A stretch of 40,771 nt of DNA from a virus (IMGVR_UViG_3300044998_000126:1-40771); one strand, 5' to 3'; positions 18,836-40,771 are shown, numbered from the stretch's first letter. A program made the numbers and translations. Notes: generated from the letters alone by a model not told the origin.

Positions 18836-18869
18836 CCTTCAGGCTCTGTTGAAATGACGGGGCTTGAGC

Positions 18870-21800
18870 ATGTCAAAACCTTGGGAACGCGACTGGTCCA
18901 CACCTTCTGAATCTTCTGCCGGTCCAAAGCCATGGGAAAGAACCTGGGCGGCTGAAGCGCAGCCTGTCAGTCGCGGTGCAAGGGCTATTGCCTCTGATCT
19001 GGCTAAAGGCTTGGGTGGCGCAGTGGTTTCCGCTGTTGGCGCCGTACCGACTGCCGTAGGCCGAGCGGTACAAGAAGGCGGGGAAACACTTTTTGGGCTC
19101 AGTATGGATGAGGCCCGTCGCCTGGCTGAAGCCGATGGCACCCCTGAGAAGGCGCTGGAGTGGCACGAGCGCGCCAATCGACTCAACCCAATTTCTGCTG
19201 CTGGCCGGGCCATTGAATCAGGTGGGCAGTGGATAGGCCGTCAAGGCGATCGCTTGCGCGATTCACGTTCTGATGAGGCCAAGAAACGGGCTCGTCAATC
19301 CACCCCAGACGGCGATCTCATGCGTCCATCTACTTGGACGATGGGCGAGAACCCAACCGTCGAGGGTGTTGCTCAAGTCACTGCTGATGTGATTGGCAGC
19401 ATGGCTCCACCGATTGCCGCTGCGATTGCAACGCGTGGCCGCTCTGCCACGACGCAGATGCGCGTGGGTGGCGCAACAGTCGCCGGCCAGATTGGCGGCG
19501 CCGCCATGGAAGAGGCAGGCGACTACCTGAGCCAGTTCACCGACGATCAGCTACGACAAGCATCACCCGTGTTTCGTGATCTTGAGGCCAAGGGGTACAG
19601 CGCAGCCGATGCGCGAACCATCCTGAGCCGCGACGCAGAAAACCGAGCCGCCACGTTTGCTGCGCCTGTGGGTTATGTGGGTGGCCAGGCGACCGCCGCG
19701 ATCCTTGGCAAGCCTGGCGAACGGTTGGCCGGTGGTTTTGGAAGCATGGCCGCAAAGGCCGGCATATTGGGTGCTTTGGGTGCAACTGAAGAGGGTTTGC
19801 AGGAGGTTGCTGAAGGCGTGGCCACACGCGCCGGCATCAACAACGCCACGGGCATGGACCGCTCTTTAACCGAAGGCACCTTTGGCGAGTTCATCTTGGG
19901 CGCCAAGGGCGGCGGTGTCACGGGCGCAGGAAAGGGTGTGCTCGAAGGATTGCGTGCACGGCAAAGCGCTGATGGTGCCATCACTGATGATGGGACCAGC
20001 CCGACTGTCACACCGGAAGGCGGAAACATGCCGCCCGCCGCTGCTGCGCCAGAGGCGCCGCTTGTCACATCCCAATCCAGTGATCCGACTTCGCGCTTGG
20101 CGGAGTTGGATATCCTGGCCGAGCAGCGCGACCTGACGCCGGCCGAGCGCCAGGAAACGATTGACCTGCTGACCGCCCTGCAAGATGAGCAAGACGCAAC
20201 GCAAGGAACCGAAGGAGACGCCCCGCAAGCCCCGGCAGTGGAAGCGCCAAAGGCAACGGGAGGCGATGGAGCCGCCGCTGCTGGAGTACCCGCAGAACCT
20301 GCCGCCCCTAATGTGGAAGCCGCTGGGCTAGAGCCCGAGCGTGAGGCGGCCAAGCGCACCAATTTCTGGACCTGGATCGGCACCAAGGGCTACAAGCCCG
20401 CCGATGTCAAGGTCGGCACACCGCTGCACGCCGAGCTGAAGGCGGAGTTTGACGCGCTGCGCAACGGCCAACCGCTGCCGTCCAAGGCGCAGCCGGCCGC
20501 GCCGTCTGTCGATCCGGTGGCCGCCGTCACGGCATGGCGGGAGCGGTTCCCGGCCAAGCCGCCGTCCGGCATGAGTGAGGAGCAATTGCACCAGTTTGCC
20601 GGCGAGCGCCGCAACGCGGATGCGCAACTGGTGCAGCAACTGGAGCCGCAGGCCAATGGGCTGGTGCTGCCCACGGCCACCGGGTTCGGTGGCATCACGC
20701 AAGACCCGAGCGAGGCGGGCAAGTGGCGCATCACCCGCTTTGATGCGGCCATGGAGCCGGTCGGCCATGAGGTCTACAACAGCGCCCGCGAGGCGATCGA
20801 GAACCTGCTGCCGCGCTTCCAGGCGCCGCGGGCCAAGCAGGCAGAGCCCATCCTGCCGCCGCTGCAACCGCAGCCGAGCGTGGACTTGCAAAACCGTGAC
20901 CGCTCGCGCGCTGCGTCCGTGGTGCAGATGAGCGACATCGCCCGCAACCCCGATTACATGCGCCTGGGGCCAAGCCGCACTCCGGACAGCGGGGCGCCGA
21001 TGGTGTTTGCCGTGGGCGACGACGTGAGCCGCATCCCGGCGGAGAACTTCGGCCGCCAGGACGTGGCCGTGATGAGCGACGGCCAGCGTGTGCCGTTCCG
21101 CTACGCCGTGGTGGATGCCACGAAGGTCAACCCGTCGAACTTTGCCGATGGCCGCCAGAACCCGGAGTTCAGCAGCACGACGCCGGGCACGATCAAGGCG
21201 CTGAACAACGGCCGCACCGCAGGTGTTCGTGCCGCGCATGAGATGGGCACGGCCGGCGAGTACGTGGCCGGCATGCAAGCCGACGAGGCGATGCACGGCA
21301 TCCCGGCCGACGTGATCGCGCGCACGCCGAATCCGATGCTGGTGCGCGTCTACTCCGATGCGGCCAACACCGCCAACATGGCCGCCAAGAGCCAGGGCCA
21401 GGGCCTGGGCATGAGCCCGGCCGAGTTGGCCCGCCAGGACGCGCCGCTGATGGATTCGAGCGTGCTGGGCGTGTACGAGCCGGGCGAGATCACCAGCGCG
21501 GCCAACCGCGACTTCGTGCGTGCGTTCATTGGCAAGCTGCAAGCCGCCGGCCAGGACGTGGCCGGGATGATGACTGGCGACGGGCAACTGTCGCAGGACG
21601 GCCGCAAGCGCATCCAGGCCGCGCTGATGCAGGCCGCCTACGGCGATGTTGATCTGGTGGAGGAGATGTTTGACTCCACCGACACCGACATCAAAGCCAT
21701 CGGCGAGGCGCTGAAGGCCGTCGCCGGGCAGTGGGCCAACATGCGCGACTCGGCCCGACTGGGTGTGATCAACCCGCAGGTGGACGTGACCGAGAACCTG

Positions 21801-24800
21801 GTGCAGGCGGTGAACCTGATCCGCAAGGCCCGGCGCGAGCGCATGAGCCTCAAGGATCTGGTGGCGCAGCCCGACCTGATGACGGGCGAGACGCCGCACG
21901 CGCTGACCGTGGGCATACTGCGCGTGTTCTACGATGGCCAGAACTTCACGCGCGCGGTCGGCCGCGACAAAGTGGTGGCCAAGCTGGAGGAATACATCCG
22001 AGCGGCCATGGCCACCTCGGCAGACGCCGGTCTGTTTGGCGGCGAGCCTGTGTCGCCGGCCGACATTTTGGCTACCATCACCGGACAAGGAGCACTGGAT
22101 GCGCAAACTCAACCCGAAGAAGGCCGAGGAGAACCCGCTGGCAGCGGCGATTCTGGGGGCCGTGTTGGTGAAGTACGGCCGGCTGGAGAACAGCCAGACG
22201 CAGATCGAGGCGGGCGAGCGTCTGCTGAAGATCGCGGAGCAGAACCAGGACAAGATGCCGCGCCTGAAGCCCGACAGCAAGATGGCCAAGGCGATCAAGG
22301 CGGCCAAGGAGGCGATGGCGCCGGCCAAGGCGGTACCGCCGGAGGACAGCAAGGAAGCGCTGAAGGCCAAGCCGACAGACTGACCCTGCCTGTCAAAAGC
22401 CCGCTGGACGCCGACGCCAAGAAGCCCGCGCGAAAGGCAAAGGGCGAAGGTGTAAAGGCAAAGCCGGTAGAGGCCGCCAGCGACCAGCCGGCCATCGACC
22501 GCGAGAAGCTGGACAAGGATTTCCGCACCTTCCCGACACAGATCCTGAACAACCTGCTGGAGCGCGGCGAGGCCGCCAAGCTCTACAAGGCCGCGGGCGT
22601 CAAGGGCGCCAGCGCGTTTGGCGACTTGGCCATGGATGACAAGGCCGCCGCCTACGTCAAGTTCGTGCAGCAGGGCGGAAAGCCGGTCGAGAACCTGCCC
22701 AAGGACTACAACGCCTGGGTGAAGAGCGAAGAGCGCGCCGCCGAGGTGCGCCGGCTGCAATCCGACCGCGTGGTGCGCCAGGAAAACGGCAAGCCCTTCA
22801 AGAGCAAGACCAGCGCGCAGCAGTACCAGGAGCGTTACGACCTGACCGGCACGCATGAGGTGGTGGCGGTCGATGGCGGGTTTGAGCTGCGCCAGCTTTC
22901 GCCGGCCGCGCAGGCTGAGCTGAAGCGCAAGGCCGAGGGCCGCGAGAGCTACACCGAGGCGCAGGCTGCCGTGGCCGAGGAAATGGGCATCGGTCAGACG
23001 CCGGATGGCGAGTGGGACGCCACCGACGAGCAGTTTGACGAGATGGAGCGCCGCGTGCAGGCAAGGATGCGCGGCGAGCCTGCCGAACCCCTGCTGACCA
23101 ACCCCACCCGTGAGGACGTGCTGGCCCAGCAGGAGCGCGCCGAAAACGCGCAGGCCGCCGACGAGCGCGAGCAGATCCGCCGCGAGAGCGAAGCGGGCGC
23201 CGGCACCTTCAGCCTGGAGATGCAGGACGGGCGGCAGGACACGACGGCGGACCTGTTCCGCCAGACGGCACCCAAGCCGACCCGCCCGGCGGTCTCTCCC
23301 AACACCATCTTTACCGAGGACGCCGCGGCCAAGGCGCGTGAGCGCCTGCGCAAGAAGCTGTGGCAACTCAACAGCGGCCTCGACCCGGAAATGATGATGG
23401 ACGGCATCACGCTGGCCGGCTATCACATCGAGAAGGGCGCCCGCACCTTCGCCGCCTACGCCCGCGCGATGCTGGCGGACCTGGGCGACGGCGTGCGCCC
23501 CTATTTGAAATCGTGGTACATGGGTGTCAAATACGACCCACGGGCCGCGGGCTTTGACGGCATGGACGACGCCGCCACGGTGGAGTCTGCCGATCTTGAC
23601 GCGCTGACGGCGCAGGAGAATGACGATGTACCAGGTTCCGATGTCCGTGTGGAACGCGATCGCCAAGAGCCAGCCCCTGGGCCAGCCGTGGGCGACGCTG
23701 TTCCGGATGACGCCGGAGGATCTGCCGAGGGGAATCGCGCAGATGGTGGACGCACCCGCCGAGGCGGCCGGCGCGGACAACCGGACGGTGCTGGCGTATC
23801 GACTGGTGGCGCCGTTGCTGGTGGAGAACGAAGCGATCTCGGCCTACCTGGAGGAGACCCGGCAGCCGAACATGCGCGCGTGTCTACCGGAGCTGACTTC
23901 GGTGAACGAGGCAGTGACATTGGCGTCGATGGAGTATCGACTGACCCCATCCCAGCAACGCAAGTTGACGCAGTTGCTACGCGCGGCGATGAGCGGGCAG
24001 AGCGCGAGCAGGCCCAGCGACGCGCTGACCGCATCCCGGTAATTGCCGGCAACGCGGAGAACATCCGCCAGACGCTGCCGTATCTGCTGGCAGGCCAGCA
24101 GGAGGATGTGGCCAAGGCCGAAGCCCGGTTTGCGCAACCGGACGGCTACGGGATGCTGTTCACCAACGGCACCGGCACCGGCAAGACCTTCACCGGCCTC
24201 GGCATCGTCAAGCGCTTCGAGCGCCAGGGCAAGGGCAATGTCCTGATCGTCGTCCCCGACGACAAGATTGCATCCGACTGGATCGAGTCCGGCCGCGCGC
24301 TGGGCCTGACGATCACGGCGCTGCGCGACACCAAGGACGCCGGCCGCGGCATCACGGTGACGACTTACGCCAACCTGGGCGAAAACGACGCGCTGGTGTC
24401 GCGCCAATGGGATCTGTTCGTAGCTGACGAAGCGCACGAGCTGATGAAGTCGGCCGATGGCTATGTGACGAAAGGCCTGGCAGCGCTGCGCGCGCTGTCG
24501 CTGCACCCGGATGGCGCCCACACCCGCTACGAAATGCTCAACCGGCCGGACATTCAGAAGGCGGCCGCCCTGGACGAGCAGATCAAGGTCAACCTGCGCA
24601 TGATGTCCCGCGACGACACCATGGATGTCATGGTGGAGTCGCTGCGCCGGGAGAACCAGCGCATGGAGGCCGAGCTGGCCGCCCTGTACGCCAAGCTGGA
24701 CGCCGCCCGTACCGCGGTGCGCGAGGACGTGAAATCGCGCCAGGGCGCCAGCCGCCCCCGTGCGGTATTCCTGTCGGCCACGCCGTTCGCCTACGAGTTC

Positions 24801-27800
24801 AACATCGACTGGGCCAACGGCTATCTGTTTGATTACAACGAAGGCCAGTCGGACGAGAGCCTGGAGTTCCGCGGCTACAACCAAGGCAGCAACCGCGACC
24901 GCTTCTTCATGACCCACTTCGGGTACACGATGCGGTACAACAAGCTGACTAAGCCGGCCCCGTCCAAGGTGGACACCGGCCTGATGCAGCGGCAGTTCAA
25001 TTCCTGGTTGAAGTCGCGCGGGGTGCTGTCGGCCCGGATGCTGGACGTGCCGGCCGACTACGACCGCAAGTTTGTGCTGGTGGATTCTGCCATCGGCAAC
25101 CGCATTGACGAGGCGCTGTCCTGGCTTGACGAGCAGCGCCTGGCCGACAAGACCGGCGGTTTCAGGCTGCTGCGCGACACCATCGACGAGAAGTTTGACT
25201 ACCTGAGCCGACGCTACCTGCTGGAGGCGATCAAGGCGACGGAATCGGTGCCGATTGTGCGCGAGCACCTGCGCCTGGGCCGCAAGGTCGTTGTGTTCCA
25301 CGACTACAAGAAGGGCGGCGGTTTCAACCCGTTCGACATCAAGCCGTCCGACGCGCCGGCGCTCGATGGCGAGCGCCAATCCGATCAGCAGGCGTTCAAT
25401 GACACGCTGGCCACCTTCCGCGAGAAGTTCAAGGATCTGGTGGACGCCCCGCTGGGGCGGCTGCCGAGCCCGATCGAGGTGTTCAAGCGCGAGTTCCCTG
25501 ACGTTCTGCTGGTCAACGGCGACGAGAAGAAGGCCGACCTGCTGGCGCGCTACAAGAAGTTCCAGGACGACGCGAGCGGCCCGCAGGTGATGCTGGTGCA
25601 GTCGGCCAAGAACAAGGGATGGAGCGGCCACGACACGACGGGCAAGCATCAGCGCGTGCTCATCAACCTGGGCATGCCGACCGCGCCGACCCTGGCCATC
25701 CAGCAGGAGGGACGGATCTACCGCACGGGCCAGGTCAGCAACGCCATCATCCGCTACCTGAACACAGGCACCAACTGGGAGCGCTGGGCGTTTGCCACGA
25801 CGATCGCCAGCCGGGCCAGCACAGCCGAGAACCTGGCCATGGGCGAGCAGGCGCGCGCCCTGAAGGATGCCTTCGTCGCTGTGTTTGAAGAATCGGACGC
25901 CTACCCGCCGGGGCACGAGGGCGAGGGCACAGGCGGCAAGGCGCGCGACGCTGCGGCCAACAACGCCTTGACGGCCTACGACCGCGCCAAGTACTTCTAT
26001 TGGGCAACCCAGAAGAAGAACAGCAAGACCAAGGCGCAGGAGGGCACGGACTACTTTGCCACGCCGGAGCCGGTCGGCCTGAAGATGGCCGAGTGGCTGG
26101 CCCTGCGTGGCGGCGAAGAGGCACTGGAGCCCAGCGCCGGCCATGGCGCGATTGCCCGCTGGCTGCCGGATACGGTCAAGCGCACCGCCATCGAGCCGTC
26201 CGGCGCGCTGCGCGCCCGCCTGGCGATGGTGATGAGCCCGAAGGATGACCGCATCATCGACGGCGTGTTTGAGGACCACCACGTCAGCAACAAGTACGAC
26301 GGGATCGTGATGAACCCGCCGTTCGGGGTGGGCGGCAAGACGGCCATCGAGCACTTGGCCAAGGCGGCTACGCACCTGCGCGACGGAGGCCGCATCGTCG
26401 CGCTGATCCCGACCGGACCGGCCGCAGACAAGCGTTACGAGCAGTGGATGTACGGCACCGAGCAGCGTCCGGTCAAGCCGCTGCTGGAGCATCCGACCCT
26501 GGGCTCGATCTACGCCGGCGACACGGTTCGCACCCGCGCCGCCTGGGCGCCAGAGGGTCGCGTGGTGCGTGCGCGTGATGGCGCGCTGATGGTAAAGGTC
26601 GAGGGGCAGCCCGGAGAGAGCATGGTGTCCCTGGGCGCCGTGACCGAGGTGCAGCCGACAGGCGTGCGAACCCGCGAGGTCCGTCCGGCCGAAGGCATTT
26701 ACACCGTGGGCGAGATCCGACTGCCGCAGGTGACGTTTGAGCGTGCCGGCACAAAGGTGGCCACGCGCATCGTGATCCTGGAGAAACAGTCCGACCGCGA
26801 GCGCGCGCCGAATGCCCGCGCGCCGATCGACCTGACCGATGTCACAGACATTCGGGAGCTATTCGACCGCCTGGAGAGGCTGGAAATGCCCGGCCGCCGC
26901 ATGACGGCCGCGCAAGAGCAGGCCGCAGAGGCCGAGCGTGCCGAGCAGGAGCGCGCCAGGCAGCGCGAGGAAGCCCGCGCCAAAAAGGCCGAGCCGGGTG
27001 CGCCGAAGGCGGCCAACCCCGATGCCGTTGGCACCGTGGACCGGGCTGGCCATGAAATCATCGAGCACGTCACCCAGAAGGGCAAGACGATCCGCGGCAT
27101 CGTGCGCACGGATCTTTTGAAGGAAGAGGCGCAGAAGATCGACCCGTACACCTTCCGCAAGTATGGCGGCTGGTTCATCCGCGAGGTGTATCTCAAGTCT
27201 GACGACGCCCCGATGGCCAGCCGCGGCCGCGCCGGCGGCATGACGGAATCCGCCGTGCGCCAGGTGGCCGACACCATCACGTCACGCTGGACCAAGGCGC
27301 CGACCGTGGTGGTGGTGCCGAACATGCAGGACATGCGCGTGCCGGAGGCCGCGCGCCAGGAGGACGCCCGCCAGCGCGCCGCCGGCGCGACGGGGGTGCC
27401 GCGCGCCTTCTACGACCGCGGCACCGTGTACCTGGTGGCCGATGGTCTGAAGAGCGTCACCGACGCCGCCGAAGCGCTGTTTCACGAGGCGCTGGGCCAC
27501 TACGGGCTGCGCGCCGTGTTCGGCTCCGCGCTGGACGGCATCCTGGACCAGATCGCCGTGGCACGGCCGGACCTGATGCGACCGAAGGCCAAGGAGTACG
27601 GCAAAGATCTGAAGGTGCTGAAGCAGCGCCGCGAGGTGGCCGAGGAAGTCCTGGCCGAAATGGCGCAGACGAAGCCGAACCTGGGATTCGTCAAGCGCGC
27701 GATCGCAGCCATCCGCACCTGGTTGCGCCAGAACGTGCCGGCCCTGAAGGACATGGCGCTGACGGATGCCGAGATCATCAACAACTTCATCCTGCCCGCG

Positions 27801-30800
27801 CGCGGCTGGGTGGAGCGTGGTGAGCGGGCGATGCGGCCGGGTGGGAAGGTGGCGATGAGTCGTGATGGCGCCGACCAGCCGCAAGACCAGACCCAGACCG
27901 AAGCCTTCCGCCGCTGGTTTGGTGACAGCAAGGTGGTGGATGCCGATGGCAACCCGCTGGTGGTGTATCACGGGACGCGGGCTGACATCACTACGTTTGA
28001 CCCTGAACGCGCTGGCTCAAAGACTGATTCTGGTGCGTGGGGCAGAGGAATCTACTTCGCAGCCGATCCCGAATACGCTGGCGCTTATGCGGGGCGGACT
28101 GAGGGATCGAACATCGTTCCGGCGTACATCTCCTTGCAAAACCCGCTTGTCGTGGACGCGCGAGAACGCACGGCGGCTATTCGTGGGATCGGGCTTGAGG
28201 TGCCTCGCGGCGACCCGACGCCCGCGTGGTCGCAGCAATTTGCCAATGCGGTAGCACAACGCGGTTACGATGGGGTGATCGTGACATTGGACGGGGCTCC
28301 GGCGGAGATCGTCGCCTTCCGCCCCGAGCAGATCAAGAGCGCCACCGGCAACCGCGGCACGTTCGATCCCGAGAACCCGGACATCCGCTTTAGCCGCTCC
28401 ACCCTGGGCAACACCCCGCCCACGCCGCCGCAGAACCCAAACGCCTGGCAGAAGCTGAAAGCCAAGGCGCTGGAGCTGACCAACCCGGACGCGATCGAGA
28501 GCCTGATCTACGAGTACCAGGACAAGAACATTGACCTGAAGCGGCTGCGCGATCACATCAAGGAGCTGGGCGGCACGATCACGGACCTGAACGACGCCTA
28601 CCTGGGCGAAGAGCTGTACCACAAGCGCCTGGCCAAGCGGACGCAGGACTTTTTGAGCGAAGAGCTCAAGCCGCTGCTGGCCGACATGCGCGCCCGCGGG
28701 GTGGACATGCCGACGCTGGAGCGCTATCTGCACGCCCGCCATGCGCCCGAGGCCAACCGCGTGCTGGCCGAGCGCAACCCGAATGCCCAGATGATCGAGG
28801 CCGGCAAGGCCAAGGCGCTGGCCGAGGTGAAGGCGCTGGAGGTGCAACTGCAACGCGCCCGCGCGCAGGGCACGGCCACCAAGGCGGTCGAGCAGGCGCT
28901 GGAGCAGGCGCTGGCCGAACGCGACCGCTGGACCGGGGCGCAGGCCTTCAAGGGCACCGAGGCCGAGCGCCTGAGCCTGTCGGGCATGAGCGACGCCGAG
29001 GCGGCCGCTTTCATGGGCGGTCTGCCGGCCGGCCAGAAGGTGCACCTGGAGGCGCTGGCTGCCAGGGTGGATGCGATGCAGGCCAAGACGCTGGAGGTGC
29101 TGGAGAAATATGGCCTGATGGACAAGGCCACGCTGGACGCCTGGCGCAGCACGTACCAGTTCTATGTGCCGCTGCACCGTGACGAAGCCCATCCGGATGC
29201 CGTGAGCCACCCGATCGGGCAGGGCTTCAGCACCAAGGGCGATGCGTCGAAACGCCGCACCGGCTCCAACGAGAAGGTGACGAACATCCTGGCGCACATT
29301 GCCATGCAGCGCGAGGCGGCGCTCACCCGCGGTGAAAAGAACCGCGTGGCCAAGAAGCTGTACCTGATGGCCGCGCAGAACCCGGACCCGGAGATCTGGT
29401 CGGTGGACAAGCCGCCGATGATGAAAACCGTGGACCGGGAGACGGGCTTTGTACGCACGACGGTGGACCCGACGTACCGCAACAAGCCGAACGTGGTGAT
29501 GGTGCGCATCGGCGGCAAGGACCACGCGATCACGTTCAACGAGCGCAACCCGAAGGCGGTGCGGATGGCGCAGTCGATCAAGGGCGCGGACGTGGGCGAC
29601 CTGAACGCCTTTGAGTCGATCATGGGCAAGGCCACCCGCTGGCTGGCCAGCGTCAACACCCAATACAACCCGATCTTCGGCATCATCAACTTCGCCCGTG
29701 ACGTGCAGGCCGCCATCCTGCAACTGAGCACGACACCGCTGAAGGGCCAGGAGCGCGCCGTGGCCGCCTATGTGCCGGCGGCGCTCAAGGGCATCTATGC
29801 CGAGGTGCGCAGCCGCCGCAAGGGGCAGTCTCGCGGCACGGGGCAGTGGGCCAAGCTGTGGGAGGACATGCAGGACGAAGGCGGCACCACCGGATACCGC
29901 GAGCTGTTCATCACGCCGGATGAGCGGGTGAAGGCGCTGACCAAGGAGCTCAACGCGCTGGAGCGCGGCAAGGTATCCGAGGCCGCGCATGCCGTGGTGG
30001 ACTGGCTGTCCGACTACAACGAGACGATGGAGAACGCCGTGCGCCTGGCCGCCTACAAGGTGGCGCTGGACCAGGGCATGAGCAAGGAGCGCGCCGCCAG
30101 CCTGGCCAAGAATCTGACGGTCAACTTCAACCGCCGCGGCCGGCAGACGGCCCGACTGGGTGCGTATTACGCCTTCCTGAATGCCGCGATCCAGGGCACG
30201 ACCCGCATGGTGGAGACGCTGCGCGGGCCGCTGGGCCGCAAGATCATGCTGGGGGGTGTTATGCTGGGCGCCGTGAATGCCTTGATCGGCATGGCCATGA
30301 TGGGCGGCGACGACGAAGAGGACAACTGGGAGAAGATCCCCGACTTTGTGAAGGAGCGCAGCCTCATCGTCCCGCTGGGGCGCGAGGACTACCTGGCCAT
30401 CCCCATGCCGCTTGGCTATCACGTGTTCCCGAACCTGGGCCGCAAGGCGGTGGAGATGATGATGCACGACGATCCGACCAAGGGCGTCGGCAGCCACATT
30501 GCGGAGATGCTGCGCATCACGCTGGATGCATTCAACCCGCTGGGCGGATCGGAGAACCTGGCGCAGATGGTGACGCCGACGCCGTTCGACCCGGCCGTCG
30601 CGCTGATGATGAACCGCGACTGGACGGGCAAGCCGATCTACCGCGAGGACAACAGCAACCTGGACCCAACGCCGGGCCACCAGCGCACCAAGGACACCGC
30701 GAGCGCCTTCAGCAAGGCCGTGTCCGAGGCGCTGAACAAGATCACGGGCGGCACGGACTACCAACCGGGCGCCGTGAGCGTGACGCCGGACCAGATCGAC

Positions 30801-31262
30801 TACGTGATCGGGCAGATCACCGGCGGCCTGGGCCGCGAGATCCTGAAACTGGAGAACTCGATCACGGCCCCGCTGACCGGAGACGAGTTGCCGGCCTACA
30901 AGATCCCCCTGGTGGGCCGTCTATACGGCAACACCCGCGGGCCGGCCAACAACGCGGAGCTGTTCTACGAGCACGTGCGCGAGCTCAACCAGATCGAGAA
31001 CGAGATCCGCGGCCGCGCCCGAGACGGCGGCGATGTGGCGGGCTACATGGCCGAGGAACCGCTGTCCGCTCTGGTTGGCATGGGCAACGCGGCGGAGAAC
31101 CAGATCCGCAAGCTGCGACAGTACCGCGCGGAGGTGGTGCGCCGCGCCGAACCGGGCTACCAGGATGAGGTCAAGCGCATCAACGAGCAGATGGGCGAGG
31201 TGATGAAGCTGCTCAACCAGGAGGTGCGGCGGGCGAAGATGGAGGCGGCGGCTGCCCAGTAA
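18870..31262 (+). CDS. Giant polyvalent DarB-like internal virion protein (~4130 aa): ddrB-like ParB domain, SF2 helicase, N6-adenine methyltransferase, zincin-like peptidase, ART-PolyVal, LPD38-like C-terminus
   Basis: LQNRDRSR/NNGRT (~20880-21450); GTGTGKT (24168), DEAH (24426), SAT, QQEGRIYR; EPSAGHG and NPPF (26313); HEALGH (27483); YHGT...GIYFA...GYDGVI...EIVAF (~27890-28400); WEKIPDFVKERSLIVP...IPMPLG. Confidence 0.9.
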   Translation: MSKPWERDWSTPSESSAGPKPWERTWAAEAQPVSRGARAIASDLAKGLGGAVVSAVGAVPTAVGRAVQEGGETLFGLSMDEARRLAEADGTPEKALEWHERANRLNPISAAGRAIESGGQWIGRQGDRLRDSRSDEAKKRARQSTPDGDLMRPSTWTMGENPTVEGVAQVTADVIGSMAPPIAAAIATRGRSATTQMRVGGATVAGQIGGAAMEEAGDYLSQFTDDQLRQASPVFRDLEAKGYSAADARTILSRDAENRAATFAAPVGYVGGQATAAILGKPGERLAGGFGSMAAKAGILGALGATEEGLQEVAEGVATRAGINNATGMDRSLTEGTFGEFILGAKGGGVTGAGKGVLEGLRARQSADGAITDDGTSPTVTPEGGNMPPAAAAPEAPLVTSQSSDPTSRLAELDILAEQRDLTPAERQETIDLLTALQDEQDATQGTEGDAPQAPAVEAPKATGGDGAAAAGVPAEPAAPNVEAAGLEPEREAAKRTNFWTWIGTKGYKPADVKVGTPLHAELKAEFDALRNGQPLPSKAQPAAPSVDPVAAVTAWRERFPAKPPSGMSEEQLHQFAGERRNADAQLVQQLEPQANGLVLPTATGFGGITQDPSEAGKWRITRFDAAMEPVGHEVYNSAREAIENLLPRFQAPRAKQAEPILPPLQPQPSVDLQNRDRSRAASVVQMSDIARNPDYMRLGPSRTPDSGAPMVFAVGDDVSRIPAENFGRQDVAVMSDGQRVPFRYAVVDATKVNPSNFADGRQNPEFSSTTPGTIKALNNGRTAGVRAAHEMGTAGEYVAGMQADEAMHGIPADVIARTPNPMLVRVYSDAANTANMAAKSQGQGLGMSPAELARQDAPLMDSSVLGVYEPGEITSAANRDFVRAFIGKLQAAGQDVAGMMTGDGQLSQDGRKRIQAALMQAAYGDVDLVEEMFDSTDTDIKAIGEALKAVAGQWANMRDSARLGVINPQVDVTENLVQAVNLIRKARRERMSLKDLVAQPDLMTGETPHALTVGILRVFYDGQNFTRAVGRDKVVAKLEEYIRAAMATSADAGLFGGEPVSPADILATITGQGALDAQTQPEEGRGEPAGSGDSGGRVGEVRPAGEQPDADRGGRASAEDRGAEPGQDAAPEARQQDGQGDQGGQGGDGAGQGGTAGGQQGSAEGQADRLTLPVKSPLDADAKKPARKAKGEGVKAKPVEAASDQPAIDREKLDKDFRTFPTQILNNLLERGEAAKLYKAAGVKGASAFGDLAMDDKAAAYVKFVQQGGKPVENLPKDYNAWVKSEERAAEVRRLQSDRVVRQENGKPFKSKTSAQQYQERYDLTGTHEVVAVDGGFELRQLSPAAQAELKRKAEGRESYTEAQAAVAEEMGIGQTPDGEWDATDEQFDEMERRVQARMRGEPAEPLLTNPTREDVLAQQERAENAQAADEREQIRRESEAGAGTFSLEMQDGRQDTTADLFRQTAPKPTRPAVSPNTIFTEDAAAKARERLRKKLWQLNSGLDPEMMMDGITLAGYHIEKGARTFAAYARAMLADLGDGVRPYLKSWYMGVKYDPRAAGFDGMDDAATVESADLDALTAQENDDVPGSDVRVERDRQEPAPGPAVGDAVPDDAGGSAEGNRADGGRTRRGGRRGQPDGAGVSTGGAVAGGERSDLGLPGGDPAAEHARVSTGADFGERGSDIGVDGVSTDPIPATQVDAVATRGDERAEREQAQRRADRIPVIAGNAENIRQTLPYLLAGQQEDVAKAEARFAQPDGYGMLFTNGTGTGKTFTGLGIVKRFERQGKGNVLIVVPDDKIASDWIESGRALGLTITALRDTKDAGRGITVTTYANLGENDALVSRQWDLFVADEAHELMKSADGYVTKGLAALRALSLHPDGAHTRYEMLNRPDIQKAAALDEQIKVNLRMMSRDDTMDVMVESLRRENQRMEAELAALYAKLDAARTAVREDVKSRQGASRPRAVFLSATPFAYEFNIDWANGYLFDYNEGQSDESLEFRGYNQGSNRDRFFMTHFGYTMRYNKLTKPAPSKVDTGLMQRQFNSWLKSRGVLSARMLDVPADYDRKFVLVDSAIGNRIDEALSWLDEQRLADKTGGFRLLRDTIDEKFDYLSRRYLLEAIKATESVPIVREHLRLGRKVVVFHDYKKGGGFNPFDIKPSDAPALDGERQSDQQAFNDTLATFREKFKDLVDAPLGRLPSPIEVFKREFPDVLLVNGDEKKADLLARYKKFQDDASGPQVMLVQSAKNKGWSGHDTTGKHQRVLINLGMPTAPTLAIQQEGRIYRTGQVSNAIIRYLNTGTNWERWAFATTIASRASTAENLAMGEQARALKDAFVAVFEESDAYPPGHEGEGTGGKARDAAANNALTAYDRAKYFYWATQKKNSKTKAQEGTDYFATPEPVGLKMAEWLALRGGEEALEPSAGHGAIARWLPDTVKRTAIEPSGALRARLAMVMSPKDDRIIDGVFEDHHVSNKYDGIVMNPPFGVGGKTAIEHLAKAATHLRDGGRIVALIPTGPAADKRYEQWMYGTEQRPVKPLLEHPTLGSIYAGDTVRTRAAWAPEGRVVRARDGALMVKVEGQPGESMVSLGAVTEVQPTGVRTREVRPAEGIYTVGEIRLPQVTFERAGTKVATRIVILEKQSDRERAPNARAPIDLTDVTDIRELFDRLERLEMPGRRMTAAQEQAAEAERAEQERARQREEARAKKAEPGAPKAANPDAVGTVDRAGHEIIEHVTQKGKTIRGIVRTDLLKEEAQKIDPYTFRKYGGWFIREVYLKSDDAPMASRGRAGGMTESAVRQVADTITSRWTKAPTVVVVPNMQDMRVPEAARQEDARQRAAGATGVPRAFYDRGTVYLVADGLKSVTDAAEALFHEALGHYGLRAVFGSALDGILDQIAVARPDLMRPKAKEYGKDLKVLKQRREVAEEVLAEMAQTKPNLGFVKRAIAAIRTWLRQNVPALKDMALTDAEIINNFILPARGWVERGERAMRPGGKVAMSRDGADQPQDQTQTEAFRRWFGDSKVVDADGNPLVVYHGTRADITTFDPERAGSKTDSGAWGRGIYFAADPEYAGAYAGRTEGSNIVPAYISLQNPLVVDARERTAAIRGIGLEVPRGDPTPAWSQQFANAVAQRGYDGVIVTLDGAPAEIVAFRPEQIKSATGNRGTFDPENPDIRFSRSTLGNTPPTPPQNPNAWQKLKAKALELTNPDAIESLIYEYQDKNIDLKRLRDHIKELGGTITDLNDAYLGEELYHKRLAKRTQDFLSEELKPLLADMRARGVDMPTLERYLHARHAPEANRVLAERNPNAQMIEAGKAKALAEVKALEVQLQRARAQGTATKAVEQALEQALAERDRWTGAQAFKGTEAERLSLSGMSDAEAAAFMGGLPAGQKVHLEALAARVDAMQAKTLEVLEKYGLMDKATLDAWRSTYQFYVPLHRDEAHPDAVSHPIGQGFSTKGDASKRRTGSNEKVTNILAHIAMQREAALTRGEKNRVAKKLYLMAAQNPDPEIWSVDKPPMMKTVDRETGFVRTTVDPTYRNKPNVVMVRIGGKDHAITFNERNPKAVRMAQSIKGADVGDLNAFESIMGKATRWLASVNTQYNPIFGIINFARDVQAAILQLSTTPLKGQERAVAAYVPAALKGIYAEVRSRRKGQSRGTGQWAKLWEDMQDEGGTTGYRELFITPDERVKALTKELNALERGKVSEAAHAVVDWLSDYNETMENAVRLAAYKVALDQGMSKERAASLAKNLTVNFNRRGRQTARLGAYYAFLNAAIQGTTRMVETLRGPLGRKIMLGGVMLGAVNALIGMAMMGGDDEEDNWEKIPDFVKERSLIVPLGREDYLAIPMPLGYHVFPNLGRKAVEMMMHDDPTKGVGSHIAEMLRITLDAFNPLGGSENLAQMVTPTPFDPAVALMMNRDWTGKPIYREDNSNLDPTPGHQRTKDTASAFSKAVSEALNKITGGTDYQPGAVSVTPDQIDYVIGQITGGLGREILKLENSITAPLTGDELPAYKIPLVGRLYGNTRGPANNAELFYEHVRELNQIENEIRGRARDGGDVAGYMAEEPLSALVGMGNAAENQIRKLRQYRAEVVRRAEPGYQDEVKRINEQMGEVMKLLNQEVRRAKMEAAAAQ
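20185..20331 (+). CDS. Possible nested 48-aa ORF in the +1 frame of the giant gene
   Basis: MSKTQRKEPK...LLEYPQNLPPLMWKPLG*. The +1 codons end mostly in G/C while host-frame codons become A/T-ending. No clear RBS. Confidence 0.35.
   Translation: MSKTQRKEPKETPRKPRQWKRQRQREAMEPPLLEYPQNLPPLMWKPLG
22099..22383 (+). CDS. Nested 94-aa protein overprinted in the +1 frame of the giant gene
   Basis: AAGGAG RBS 22087-22092 with 6-nt spacing; protein-like helical sequence; host frame becomes G/E/Q/D low complexity over this span. Confidence 0.75.
   Translation: MRKLNPKKAEENPLAAAILGAVLVKYGRLENSQTQIEAGERLLKIAEQNQDKMPRLKPDSKMAKAIKAAKEAMAPAKAVPPEDSKEALKAKPTD
23626..24042 (+). CDS. Nested 138-aa protein overprinted in the +1 frame of the giant gene
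   Basis: AGGAG RBS 23614-23618 with 7-nt spacing to ATG 23626; globular composition and GC3-rich codons; host frame G/R/D-rich over the same span. Confidence 0.8.
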   Translation: MYQVPMSVWNAIAKSQPLGQPWATLFRMTPEDLPRGIAQMVDAPAEAAGADNRTVLAYRLVAPLLVENEAISAYLEETRQPNMRACLPELTSVNEAVTLASMEYRLTPSQQRKLTQLLRAAMSGQSASRPSDALTASR

Positions 31263-33866: not shown

Positions 33867-34315
33867 GCCTTCTGCTCCATGCCTTTCTCCAGCCGCTCGC
33901 GCAGAGCGGCGATGGTCGGAAAAAGCAGCTTGAGCGCACCTTCTCTAGCCAGCCCGCCCTCACCAAAGTCTTCGCTGCCCGTTGTCCAGTTCAGCGCCCC
34001 CAGCGCCTGCCCCAGCAGGGCTTCGTCGCGCTCGACCTTCGCAGCCAACGCATCGCGTTCGGCGAGCAGCTCACGGATGGTGTCGGGGTCGCATGCGGCA
34101 ATCAGCAGCGTGTTGGCTTTCTGCTCCACCCAGCCGGAACGCCCGCCGACATGCACGTACAGCGGCATCCACTCCGTGCTTTTTTCATCACTCGCCCCTG
34201 CGCCAAGAACCAGGTACGGCAAATCGCTGTACTGCCGATCCGTAACCGGTTCCCACGGCCCAGGCGTCGGCCCCTTCGCCAGCGCCCGGCGAATGTTCTC
34301 GTATCGGTCGGTCAT
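33863..34315 (-). CDS. Ead/Ea22-like hypothetical protein
   Basis: TPGPW...ANTLLIAACDPDTIRELLAERD motif. Confidence 0.7.
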   Translation of the reverse strand: MTDRYENIRRALAKGPTPGPWEPVTDRQYSDLPYLVLGAGASDEKSTEWMPLYVHVGGRSGWVEQKANTLLIAACDPDTIRELLAERDALAAKVERDEALLGQALGALNWTTGSEDFGEGGLAREGALKLLFPTIAALRERLEKGMEQKA

Positions 34316-35361
34316 GACAGTTCTCCTTGTTGCTTGAGTGGCGCAGCGGTAGGCGGCGCGGGCATGCAGTCCAGATATGCGCGGATCACTTCCGCCGCGA
34401 GCGGGGGGACGATGGCATTACCGTAGGCGCGCAGGCGTCCCACTCTGGCGGGAACCCCATGAGCCAGCAGGCGAATTGAGGGTTCAACGCGCCGGGCTTT
34501 TCCGTCGTGGCCGATGATCCAGCCGTGGTTGCCCCAATGGCCGCGCTCGACAGATAGAGGCCGTGGCGACCGTCCAGTTGTGATGGTGGAATCTTCGTCG
34601 TGCGGTTCTCGTTGGCCGATGCCCTCGCCGTCGGCCGCAGCGCCATCGCCACCTGTTGCGGCAGTGGGTGACCCGTGTCGTGCGGCCTCACTGTTCCGAT
34701 GCCGCGTCGGCCATCCGTCGCGGTCGGCGACACCCACAGCGCGCGCGGCGTGTTCTGCGCGATCCAGTAGACCTGGCGCGGCAGCAGGTCCAGCCGACTC
34801 GCCCCGTCCTTGCGCGGAGCGAAGGACATGCCCGGCGAATCCTTGTGATCCCGTGTCGTAGGCGTGGGCCACAAACCAGAGTCGATCCCTTCGGTGGGGC
34901 GCGTCGGCGGCACAAGCCGGGACAACGACCGCCCCGCAGGCGTAACCGACGCCTTCCATGTCAGCAAACACTCCGTCGAGCCAGTCCTTGCCAACCGCTG
35001 CCGCAACCTGCTCTCCCATGATGACAGCGGGCCGTCGGGCACTGGCGAGGCGAAATAGGTGGGGCCACAGGTGCCGGTCGTCAGCTTGGGCTTTGCCTTT
35101 TCCCGCGACGGAGAAAGGCTGGCAGGGCGGGCTGCCGGTCCACAGTTCGCGGTCGTCGGGCCATCCGGCAAGGCGGGCGGCGAGTGCCCATCCGCCGATG
35201 CCGGCGAAGAAATGGCATTGCGTGAATCCGGCGAGGTCGCCGGGCTGCACATCGACGATACTGCGTTCATCTACTTCCCCGTGCGGGATCAGGTTGTTGG
35301 AAATCAGGTTGCGCAGCCACAGGGCCGCATATGGATCATGTTCGTTGTAGTAGGCGGTCAT
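34312..35361 (-). CDS. C5-cytosine DNA methyltransferase, main (alpha) chain (start ATG 35361)
   Basis: FFAGIGG (motif I), GSPPCQPFS (IV), EQV (VI), APHRRDRLWFV (VIII), RLRAYGNAIV (X). Confidence 0.9.
   Translation of the reverse strand: MTAYYNEHDPYAALWLRNLISNNLIPHGEVDERSIVDVQPGDLAGFTQCHFFAGIGGWALAARLAGWPDDRELWTGSPPCQPFSVAGKGKAQADDRHLWPHLFRLASARRPAVIMGEQVAAAVGKDWLDGVFADMEGVGYACGAVVVPACAADAPHRRDRLWFVAHAYDTGSQGFAGHVLRSAQGRGESAGPAAAPGLLDRAEHAARAVGVADRDGWPTRHRNSEAARHGSPTAATGGDGAAADGEGIGQREPHDEDSTITTGRSPRPLSVERGHWGNHGWIIGHDGKARRVEPSIRLLAHGVPARVGRLRAYGNAIVPPLAAEVIRAYLDCMPAPPTAAPLKQQGELS
34386..35270 (-). CDS. Alternative-frame (beta) chain of the C5 methyltransferase carrying TRD-like repeats and motif IX
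   Basis: WPTPTTRDHKD and WVSPTATDGRRG repeats, LNPQFACWLMGFPPEW; fully nested in the MTase gene. Exact start uncertain. Confidence 0.75.
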   Translation of the reverse strand: MNAVSSMCSPATSPDSRNAISSPASADGHSPPALPDGPTTANCGPAARPASLSPSREKAKPKLTTGTCGPTYFASPVPDGPLSSWESRLRQRLARTGSTECLLTWKASVTPAGRSLSRLVPPTRPTEGIDSGLWPTPTTRDHKDSPGMSFAPRKDGASRLDLLPRQVYWIAQNTPRALWVSPTATDGRRGIGTVRPHDTGHPLPQQVAMALRPTARASANENRTTKIPPSQLDGRHGLYLSSAAIGATTAGSSATTEKPGALNPQFACWLMGFPPEWDACAPTVMPSSPRSRRK

Positions 35362-35654
35362 TCCTTCTGCCCCTTGGTCATGGCGGCCCACCATGCGCGC
35401 ACCTCTTGCGGGTCGTACCACGTGTTGCGCTGCGACGCCGTTTTATGGTCGCCGGTGCTGTAGATGGGCTTCGGTGCGCCCTTGCATCTGGCCAGCTTTG
35501 CCTGCAAGGTCTTGTGCGGAACGCCGAATTCCTCCGCCAGTTCCCGCAAGCTGCGTAGCGGCTTACGTGCGCCACCATTACGCACACGCTGGTAGAACTG
35601 CGGTAGCGTTTCACGCTCGATTGAGGTGCTGATGCTGACTCGCTTGGCTCTCAT
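35358..35654 (-). CDS. HTH/excisionase-like DNA-binding protein
   Basis: LRSLRELAEEFGVPHKTL...WYDPQEVRAWW winged-helix pattern. Confidence 0.7.
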   Translation of the reverse strand: MRAKRVSISTSIERETLPQFYQRVRNGGARKPLRSLRELAEEFGVPHKTLQAKLARCKGAPKPIYSTGDHKTASQRNTWYDPQEVRAWWAAMTKGQKE

Positions 35655-39247: not shown

Positions 39248-40771
39248 TCAGCCCTGAGCGGCGCAGCAGAGGAGGTGGTCGGCCAAGCGGCGGATGACGT
39301 GGGGGATGGCCTCTGCCGTCAGGGGTGTGTCGATGCCCAGCTCCGCAAGGCCCGCCTCGTCGATGCGCAGCGGGTGGATCGCGGCGTTGATCTGGCCGAT
39401 GGTGAGGTGGGAGGTGGCCGGAATCGAACCGGCCCCACGGGTTAGCGGCCCGTTGCCCGCGTTCGCCGCCGACGTCGCTGCGGCTGCCATCGGGTACCCC
39501 TGCGGCACGGCAGTACTACCGCCCGCAGCGAAGGCGCATCCAGCGCCACCCCCCTTGATCTCCTGCTCGCGCAGCCGCTGCGCCTCGGCGATCTTGCGCT
39601 GGCGCTCGGCGTGCTCGGCCACGCGCTGCGCGATGATGCCGCGCAGCGCCTCCTCGCTCAGCTCGCGGCACAGGCGCGGCGCATCCGGCCACAGGTTGCC
39701 GTGTTCCTCGATGGCCTGGCTGACGACGGCCATGTTGGCGCGCACGAACCGAGCCAGCTCATCCGCATCGATCTTGTACCGTGCTACCTCCGCATCCAGC
39801 GCGTCGGCCATGGATTGCAGGGACTTCTTGCCCTTGATGACCGCACCAAGGTCGGCGGTCAGGCTGGCCGGGATGCCGGGCGCGTAGTCGCCCAGGTCGG
39901 CGGCGATGTCCTGGTAGTGCGCGCGCACGCGCTGCACGGCTTGCTGTACCAGGTCTGCGCGGATCTGCTCCTTGCGCGTCTTGACCGCTTTCTCCAGCGC
40001 CAGCCGCGCCTGCCGAATCGACTCGGACACAGTGTCTGCCGTGCGCAGCACCGCCTCCACGTCGGCCATCTGCGCGATGGCCTGCTCCTTGGCGGCCTTG
40101 ATGCGGGCCTCGGCGTCGCTGCACGCCTTGGCCGCAGCCTCGGCGTCGGCGAAGTCCTGGTCGTCCTTGAGGTCGGACGGCTTGGGCAGCCGCGCCAGGA
40201 ACGCATCCGCCCCGGCGCGGAAGGCGTCGAGGTTGGAGGCCACCACGCGGCCCTCCACGCGCAGCACCAGCGTGCCGAAGCCTTCGACCGGCTTGGCCTG
40301 CACGGGCTCCGGCTCGGGCCGGAAGTTGGTCATGTCCGGGTCGTTCAGGTCGCGCTGGAACTGCCTCCAGCCTTCGATGAGCGCCTTGCGGCGCTCGGGC
40401 TTGCTGGTGTACCAGCAGTGGGCCGGGGGCTCGCTTTCGTCTCCGCAGGTGAACAGAATGCGGTCGGCGCCGGACACCAGCATCTGCTGTTCCAGTTGCC
40501 ATACGTGGTGGATGGGTGGCTCGCCGTGCTGTTCAATGTGCGCGATCGTCGAGGCGTTGCGCAGTTTGTTTTCCCAGCCGATGTCGCCCGTCATGGTCAG
40601 GCCGTCCATGCTGGCCAGCAGCTTGATGCCGTCAACCTCGGTGGTGATCGTGGCGGGGAACAGTTCTTCACCGATCATGGCTTCTGCCACCGGGCGCATG
40701 GCCGCCTCGGCACGGTGGCCGTCGTCGAACCGGCTCTGGGTGGCAGCGTCCACGTCCGGCACCAGGCCGGT
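39248..40771 (-). CDS. YqaJ-like viral recombinase exonuclease fused to a long coiled-coil region (5'-truncated)
   Basis: FDDGHRAE, LLASMDGL, WENK, WQLEQQMLVSGA motifs; frame open to the window edge. Confidence 0.9.
   Translation of the reverse strand, partial: TGLVPDVDAATQSRFDDGHRAEAAMRPVAEAMIGEELFPATITTEVDGIKLLASMDGLTMTGDIGWENKLRNASTIAHIEQHGEPPIHHVWQLEQQMLVSGADRILFTCGDESEPPAHCWYTSKPERRKALIEGWRQFQRDLNDPDMTNFRPEPEPVQAKPVEGFGTLVLRVEGRVVASNLDAFRAGADAFLARLPKPSDLKDDQDFADAEAAAKACSDAEARIKAAKEQAIAQMADVEAVLRTADTVSESIRQARLALEKAVKTRKEQIRADLVQQAVQRVRAHYQDIAADLGDYAPGIPASLTADLGAVIKGKKSLQSMADALDAEVARYKIDADELARFVRANMAVVSQAIEEHGNLWPDAPRLCRELSEEALRGIIAQRVAEHAERQRKIAEAQRLREQEIKGGGAGCAFAAGGSTAVPQGYPMAAAATSAANAGNGPLTRGAGSIPATSHLTIGQINAAIHPLRIDEAGLAELGIDTPLTAEAIPHVIRRLADHLLCCAAQG
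39405..39554 (-). ncRNA. tRNA-like structured RNA embedded in the YqaJ coding sequence
   Basis: Acceptor-like GGGGGGTG/CACCTCCC, D-like GCGC-TGGAT-GCGC, 9-bp TCGCTGCGG/CCGCAGCGA stem, ACGGG/CCCGT hairpin, canonical T-arm GCCGG-TTCGATT-CCGGC. Confidence 0.6.

Follow-up and report, generated by a model that had tools for sequence, protein, structure and literature searches.

A family of tRNA-like RNAs nested in frame in phage exonuclease and transposase genes

A tRNA-like module in a phage exonuclease gene

The window, meaning the whole 40,771-nt stretch of viral DNA analysed here, has at one end an ORF of 507 codons, cut short by the contig edge, which holds, in frame, a structured stretch of 150 nt at 39405-39554 (-). 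The first-pass annotation had placed a tRNA-like cloverleaf here inside a YqaJ exonuclease gene. The host gene is borne out by the match of the ORF to PHROG 7655 (RecE/YqaJ-type exonuclease, E 2e-124) and by PF09588 on 118/120 listed homologues; a Pfam search of the 5′-truncated ORF itself gave no match. Folded as a single sequence, the stretch reaches -85.9 kcal/mol (z = -2.44; 2/200 shuffles as good). The elements described earlier, namely an acceptor-like helix pairing 39554-39547 with 39416-39409 through one G-U and followed by an ACCT trailer, a D-like arm, an ACGGG/CCCGT hairpin, a T arm, and the linker peptide encoded in frame, were all confirmed in the sequence. Table 1 gives the features as delimited in the family fold.

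Table 1. Features of the tRNA-like module and its host gene in the window
Feature	Coordinates	Strand	Basis
Host gene, YqaJ/RecE-like exonuclease, 5′ end off contig	39248..40771	(-)	RNA encodes its linker; conserved C-terminal domain then follows
Whole tRNA-like RNA module, 146 nt, six-way junction	39409..39554	(-)	Family fold, covariation
Acceptor stem 5′ strand, with the predicted -1 base at 39554	39548..39554	(-)	6/7 pairs two-sided, 97.3% paired
D-like arm P2, 5-bp stem, loop UGGAU	39533..39547	(-)	100% paired, 2/5 pairs two-sided
Long arm P3 with self-complementary apical loop GUAC (39516-39513), predicted dimer site	39497..39532	(-)	Helices 3+4: 11/15 pairs two-sided
Arm P4/P5: 4-bp basal stem, purine-rich internal loop, GACG-loop hairpin	39456..39494	(-)	8/10 pairs two-sided
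Anticodon-like hairpin P6, loop CCGCUAA, GCU at 34-36	39437..39453	(-)	C-G to A-U change in 10/26
T arm, 5-6 bp, loop UUCGAUU	39416..39434	(-)	100% paired; loop identical in 24/26
Acceptor 3′ strand, discriminator, trailer; no encoded CCA in window copy	39405..39415	(-)	N73 purine in 22/26

The linker peptide that the element encodes is carried by 4/121 YqaJ proteins examined, in agreement with the earlier proposal of a tRNA-derived insertion, here acquired by one YqaJ lineage. Because an ordinary linker of about the same length is present in the nearest YqaJ proteins without this peptide (54-72% identical), we conclude that the RNA recently replaced the linker rather than extending it. The C-terminal domain resumes past the element, its first 25 codons specifying the same residues in the window and in the close relative L001 with two synonymous changes. 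The last ~25 residues, encoded at 39248-39335 (-), equal those of the element-free proteins P0013 and P0023, and the tail of L001 differs; judged from these comparisons, the end of the YqaJ gene is a recombination mosaic. The window DNA was matched best by hot-spring and microbial-mat runs, possibly its place of origin, with relatives in wastewater and freshwater runs.

Elsewhere in the window, two long ORFs (369 and 294 aa) at 34312-35421 and 34386-35270 (-) overlap on the same strand in different frames. The first is cytosine methylase-like by eye, and the pair presumably recalls two-chain methylases with nested frames. A 4132-aa ORF spans 18864-31262 (+), its first 1645 aa matching DarB-like antirestriction and endolysin PHROGs.

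An RNA family in protein linkers and between genes

A protein search of viral contigs returned three loci: L001, a close YqaJ relative that contains the element; L002, a distant YqaJ relative without it; and L003, whose contig matches the element alone, inside a Mu-like transposase gene. Pattern scans covered viral, genome, and metagenome contigs. They gave six matches among 185,579 species genomes (Tepidiphilus, Caldimonas, Tibeticola, and Rhodocyclaceae, Porticoccaceae, and Thiotrichales MAGs) and 12 in metagenome contigs. Some copies lie in named type strains of the first three genera; Tepidiphilus succinatimandens DSM 15512, Caldimonas manganoxidans ATCC BAA-369, and Tibeticola sediminis DSM 101684 carry Mu-like prophages. 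In all, 27 distinct copies were collected, three in YqaJ linkers, 20 in Mu-like transposases, and four free-standing, with one copy per record in 5/5 records searched. The transposase copies lie in frame in the linker past the N-terminal domain, in proteins whose groups share only 21-30% identity with one another; identity to MuA is 41.8% for a related protein. In four of these 20 (L003, L064, L071, and L074), the frame stops early or turns unlike further downstream.

Among the free copies, L004 lies between a 92-codon ORF and recT, L010 and L012 lie between a degenerate tRNA and tRNA-Met, and L022 follows a sigma-70 promoter match (11/12) that ends 14 nt upstream of it. Short open frames (65-71 codons) run across L004 and L022, a common occurrence in GC-rich DNA. 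The free copies have 60-71% GC in loci of 34-58% GC (60% against 34% at L010/L012). The degenerate tRNA directly upstream of one free copy (L010:1408-1477 (+)) scores 35.8 bits and has a UAU anticodon loop.

Wider searches added little. A looser 3′ pattern hit 48 loci, mostly ordinary or odd tRNAs or chance matches, and a pattern without the T arm hit 119, of which the 108 unrecognised ones, scanned with the model, yielded one repeat of L011 and no new member. The model scan of 101 Tepidiphilus-related genomes gave one further copy, G026 (the same as L006 by eye), and two false matches, both on tRNA-Cys. Searched against 1.84 billion proteins, a peptide profile returned seven matches (five Mu-type, one YqaJ-type with a deletion, and one unrelated repeat protein) and no third host protein family. 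BLASTN found short matches only in annotated phages (at most 21% of the query covered) and none in plasmids, and no Rfam 15 family scored above threshold. The family is apparently undescribed: we found no description in the accessible literature searched or in the searchable supplement files of PMC10690425. The accessible text of that paper presents a screen for structured RNAs in DNA phages that covered intergenic regions alone, which would therefore miss 23/27 copies.

All 22 aligned nested copies have lengths of 137, 146, or 167 nt, differing by multiples of 3 and in one phase, and the free copies have 142, 142, 147, and 168 nt; a whole RNA in an ORF with a frame-preserving length, as expected of a nested gene, was thus found in 22/22 nested versus 0/4 free copies. 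In 6/22 nested copies a +2/-2 shift causes the middle peptide to be read in another frame and changes it completely, with the GACG loop unchanged. The linker peptide is not conserved between subgroups, paired changes in the D stem alter amino acids freely, and in the D-like, P6, and T regions the third codon positions are invariant at 11/19. From these frame shifts, the free change of the peptide, and the retention of the downstream domain, it follows that any open linker suffices for the protein and that the fold is what the RNA requires. YqaJ alleles in other, independent wastewater runs carry further paired changes in P3 and the acceptor. One wastewater run contains both YqaJ-type and Mu-type flanks of the element; RNA subtypes are mixed across transposase groups, from which we infer recombination between phages of one community.

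Rickettsia palindromic elements offer a parallel for a selfish or neutral insert, which would spread as a mobile RNA-like sequence into tolerant linkers with no benefit to the phage. We consider this quite improbable here. The presence in unrelated genes, the shuffling of subtypes across such divergent transposases, the recent arrival in YqaJ, and the existence of decayed copies are what such an insert would produce, yet it is found once per record and rarely among species genomes, it replaced the YqaJ linker instead of lengthening it, and its invariant loops, together with a promoter match at free copies, indicate that function is under selection.

Two further structures accompany some copies. 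Fourteen genes for Mu-like transposases (L003:415-504, L007:1404-1493, L063:2639-2728 (-), and 11 more) hold a second conserved RNA of ~80 nt, in frame and immediately upstream of the element. It forms a three-way junction and has two C-rich loops; 10/26 of its pairs change on both sides, and it has no Rfam match. In L041, L062, L063, L069, and L078, a strong terminator-like hairpin with a U-run lies in the transposase frame 106-151 nt past the acceptor. Both structures are absent from the window.

Fold, ends, and relation to known tRNA-like RNAs

The alignment comprised 26 copies, L021 being left out as it has lost the D-like arm. The consensus fold is a six-way junction of 47 pairs, in which 98.1% of 1219 alignment cells pair and 29/47 pairs change on both sides. 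None of 500 shuffles reached the observed level and slid controls paired at 43-50%; since the copies are related and sequences were counted rather than events, these counts overstate independent events. On the strength of this covariation the structure is real and selected as RNA. The first-pass annotation had suggested aligning YqaJ homologues for presence of the element and compensatory changes. Presence proved limited to the few proteins counted above and compensatory changes were found across the 26 copies, in support of its reading that a translated gene contains a tRNA-like RNA, and of selection acting on that RNA.

Several details of the earlier description changed. A perfect 9-bp stem (39531-39523/39483-39475) is complete in the window copy, but the other 25 copies form 3-8 of its 9 pairs, and in place of the anticodon stem proposed there the conserved fold has two separate arms, P3 and P4/P5. 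The G3-U70 pair, taken as an alanine/tmRNA identity element, occurs in 3/26 copies. Instead of 8/5 geometry, the base changes favour a 12-bp acceptor-T helix (7/5 or 6/6) with an additional -1/73 pair. In every copy the base at 39416 is compatible with both possible partners (G at 39547 and a purine at 39434), and A at 39434 occurs only with U at 39416 (7/7).

The P4/P5 loop GACG (39476-39473) is invariant in 26/26 copies, in two different codon phases. P4/P5 sits where the D arm of a tRNA would sit, with YA before it and YA and CAA flanks in 26/26. The arms allow two readings of ancestry, one in which P2 is the D arm and P3 holds the anticodon position, and another in which P4/P5 is an extended D arm, P6 a GCU anticodon arm, and P2 and P3 inserts past the acceptor. 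We favour the second on account of the spacing and of an 18-nt arm (the P6 hairpin) that is identical in one E-loop tRNA1(GCU) in the accessible supplement of PMC5389517, an identity that may be convergence. We infer that the P2 loop, the better conserved GG loop, is the likelier partner of the T loop; as P2 follows the acceptor without a linker, an L-shaped tRNA fold is not guaranteed. In-frame deletions take out the D-like arm in L021 (27 nt) and P0006 (11 codons), so this arm is dispensable in some lineages. A pseudoknot between the GCU loop and a GGY junction was rejected by eye, as L078 and L009 break the pairing, and the covarying 5′ acceptor strand led us to reject a phage attP site copied from the 3′ end of a tRNA.

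The tip of P3 shows a further pattern. Its four apical bases are self-complementary in 22/23 in-register copies, where shuffling of the inner pair gives a mean of 11.1 (0/20000 shuffles as high). Counted as distinct loops, 9/10 are self-complementary, three of them through G-U pairs (binomial 0.003 for the inner pair alone), and the three out-of-register copies have GCGC in 8-base loops. Because a single hairpin does not allow its two central bases to pair with each other, the covariation points to pairing between two molecules, and P3 is predicted to mediate a homodimer; the HIV-1 dimerisation loop is an analogue for such loop-loop pairing. In duplex calculations, in which any hairpin gains some stability, the dimer was favoured by 12-21 kcal/mol for palindromic arms compared to 9.7 for the exception. 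This exception, GCAC, is carried by L075 and by the predominant YqaJ allele in runs X14-X17, and its frequency among YqaJ alleles counts against a strict need for the palindrome in that lineage. A palindrome acting at the DNA level is disfavoured, since G-U pairing is required in three variants of the loop and at many pairs of the stem.

The ends follow a regular pattern, with a pyrimidine at -1 in 23/26 copies, G at +1 in 23/26, and past the 12-bp helix a purine in 22/26 and then CC in 19/26 (RCCA in 11/26; C then ACC in the window copy). From this family pattern we predict a mature 5′ end at 39553 and a discriminator position at 39409. Bacterial RNase P prefers particular bases at the ends of its substrates, and by these preferences the ends of the element resemble those of a pre-tRNA and would fit a substrate cut between 39554 and 39553, as proposed earlier.

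The 12-bp helix, the T loop, the discriminator, and a CCA encoded in 11/26 copies are features of canonical tRNA; a four-arm cloverleaf call and, in nearly all copies, a 7-base anticodon loop with U33 are absent. ARAGORN reported 0 tRNA and 0 tmRNA in the window, RF00005 did not match the element, and a partial tRNA-His call at 1/6 loci uses a different, non-conserved fold. Among the seven-base P6 loops, GCU stands at 34-36 in 23/24 and U33 in 1/24, and the loop has 5 bases in L010 and L012 (2/26); the near absence of U33 and the short loops make decoding unlikely. These observations bear on whether the RNA is a working adaptor, aminoacylated (for example with serine) for translation or for non-ribosomal amino-acid transfer. 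The GCU triplet, the purine at 73 (22/26), and RCCA (11/26) would suit such a molecule, and some irregular tRNAs are charged according to the accessible part of PMC5389517. However, the scarcity of U33, the 5-base loops, and two large extra arms stand against it, as does the E-loop tRNA1(GCU) tested in the same source, which E. coli GlyRS and ThrRS left uncharged, and host tRNA-Ser(GCU) shares little with the element past the GCUAA loop (by eye). An adaptor function thus has a low probability.

Membership of known classes was assessed one by one. The irregular allo-tRNAs and E-loop tRNA1 of soil bacteria (Mukai et al. 2017, PMC5389517; PMC7609411) mostly do not serve in translation, and one pseudogene among them overlaps a transposon-related ORF, as far as the accessible texts go. 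They measure ~80-90 nt with 8/4 or 9/3 helices, that is, with a T stem of 3-4 bp and an acceptor of 8-9 bp; unlike them, the element has a T stem of 5-6 bp (paired in 26/26), two added arms, an extended arm in the D position, and a palindromic tip. Their extra element between the acceptor and D stems is present here if P4/P5 is the D arm and absent if P2 is. The tRNA-Sec model RF01852 gave 18.3 bits against a cut-off of 47, and this class (UCA anticodon, 13-bp 8/5 helix, long variable arm) was rejected, the element having a GCU loop and only 2-3 bases between hairpin and T arm.

The first-pass annotation had also raised YrlA and tmRNA, and a re-ordered YrlA-type Y RNA (a Ro60 tether) or a minimal tmRNA is the least probable explanation that we weighed. 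YrlA RNAs (RF02553; Chen et al. 2014, PMC4201824, accessible text) are tRNA mimics with D- and T-loop features, found in phages and in one species a substrate of RNase P. The window copy has GNCGAAN0-1G just before the last hairpin and T arm, as in a tRNA-ordered YrlA, but the exact Ro60-binding motif occurs in 5/26 copies (18/26 within one mismatch), and its partner strand and a canonical D arm are absent, unlike in the 10 YrlA matches viewed. The YrlA order, V-T-closed acceptor-D in a terminal stem, is also not that of the element, whose acceptor ends are open and covary; it lacks the closed acceptor loop, the stem that binds Ro60, and a Ro60 gene nearby. RF02553 did not match, and TROVE (Ro60) genes were found in 0/5 phage records and 0/5 host genomes, some of these incomplete, with the control positive in 2/14. 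As to tmRNA (RF00023, RF04321), the T arm and acceptor 3′ strand are similar to its tRNA-like domain and the 3′ end of the element gives a weak permuted-tmRNA match (E 0.22), but the models scored 10.2 and 14.9 bits against a cut-off of 47, there is no tag frame or conserved G3-U70, and the D-like arm is paired. Membership is not supported by ARAGORN, by the Rfam models for tRNA, tmRNA, and YrlA (sub-threshold matches only), or by the TROVE search, and the YrlA reading was rejected.

The closest precedent for nesting is selC, which lies in frame in selB of Alphaproteobacteria and was called the first nested bacterial tRNA gene (Mukai 2021, PMC8124441), in a study that left its processing model untested. 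Both cases have a whole tRNA-shaped RNA in a translated ORF, multiple-of-three lengths, remnant copies, and a proposed either/or output of RNA and protein. Unlike selC, a decoding tRNA at the end of its partner's gene, the element is larger, non-decoding, placed in mid-protein linkers of two unrelated phage families, and also free-standing. The nested, free, and decayed copies form a natural test set for that model.

In one study, RNA run X18 (depth ~3, assembled contigs) contains contigs that flank the element and none that covers it, and its 3′ contig runs into unlike sequence; this pattern is no evidence on expression. Runs X14, X16, and X17 are probably DNA.

Candidate functions

We propose, with a probability of roughly 0.45, that the element is a non-decoding tRNA mimic or decoy of early operons that is released by RNase P, is dimeric, and acts in trans. 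It would be transcribed within the early operon and cut by RNase P between 39554 and 39553, with 3′ maturation near 39409. Two molecules would then join through P3 as a kissing complex or extended duplex that presents two acceptor/T-arm elbows, and the dimer might titrate a protein by which the host senses the shape of tRNA, for example a tRNase or toxin directed against phages. Nesting would allow a compact temperate phage to carry the RNA in a tolerant protein linker, and each excision would come at the cost of one mRNA for YqaJ or MuA.

Since the same RNA is found outside protein genes in 4/27 copies, the RNA product does not need a host ORF. Its occurrence both free-standing and in Mu-like transposases likewise favours a trans-acting RNA over a YqaJ-specific switch. 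By analogy, the early-operon placement and the tRNA shape fit counter-defence: phage tRNAs counter anticodon nucleases (PMC10264068, accessible text), and poliovirus carries a decoy RNA inside its coding region. If the decoy reading holds, the element would represent RNA counter-defence against tRNA-targeting immunity. Several observations speak against it. Most copies (23/27) are nested in genes whose dose matters and 5/27 have an in-frame terminator-like hairpin downstream, both of which fit a role in cis, and no defence target is linked to the element. The direct junction of acceptor and P2, the GCAC loops, the deletions of the D-like arm, and the lack of an encoded CCA in the window copy count against it as well.

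RNase P frees the phage RNAs P4 CI and P1 C4 from early transcripts; no C4-type match for the element was found in Rfam. The poliovirus ciRNA is, like the element, a structured RNA in a coding region, and it inhibits a host nuclease (bioRxiv 10.64898/2026.06.29.735259, accessible text). The element shares no sequence or fold with ciRNA, CI, or C4, which are functional analogues alone.

A more specific version of the trans-acting decoy remains tentative and is rather doubtful as a whole. Here the element would be a self-dimerising, two-headed tRNA mimic encoded by a portable gene, stand-alone or overprinted in frame on linkers of unrelated early proteins, and released by host RNase P; it would neutralise a dimeric tRNA-targeting defence enzyme and at the same time throttle the carrier protein.

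The main rival is a cis-acting switch of mRNA processing or attenuation, in which RNase P cuts the YqaJ or MuA message, limits a dose-sensitive protein, and separates segments of the operon. We judge it unlikely, and it may also act alongside a role in trans. The in-frame location of 23/27 copies in recombination or transposition genes, the terminator-like hairpins downstream in five, the second conserved structure upstream in 14 Mu-type copies, and the place of L004 between a small ORF and recT are all compatible with a switch, for which the model proposed for tRNA-Sec nested in selB (PMC8124441) provides a template. A cleavage mark, however, needs the acceptor and T arm alone, yet P3, P5, GACG, and the palindromic tip are conserved as well; L022 has its own promoter match, L010 and L012 stand among tRNA genes, and the window holds no terminator on the strand of the element.

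Whichever role applies, two traits make the family unusual: it is portable, occurring both as free genes and in protein linkers, and it has a self-complementary loop that covaries. It shows a structured RNA gene able to change places between intergenic positions and the interior of unrelated protein genes while selection continues to act on the RNA. In a tRNA mimic, a palindromic loop that covaries predicts dimerisation by design.

Small, atypical tRNA-like RNAs of phages, in which the variable loop is very short, were also observed at L015:1484-1579 (-), L043:1483-1579 (-), and L046:1400-1554 (+). Their 3′ halves resemble the element, and those of L015 and L043 have a CUA-containing loop.
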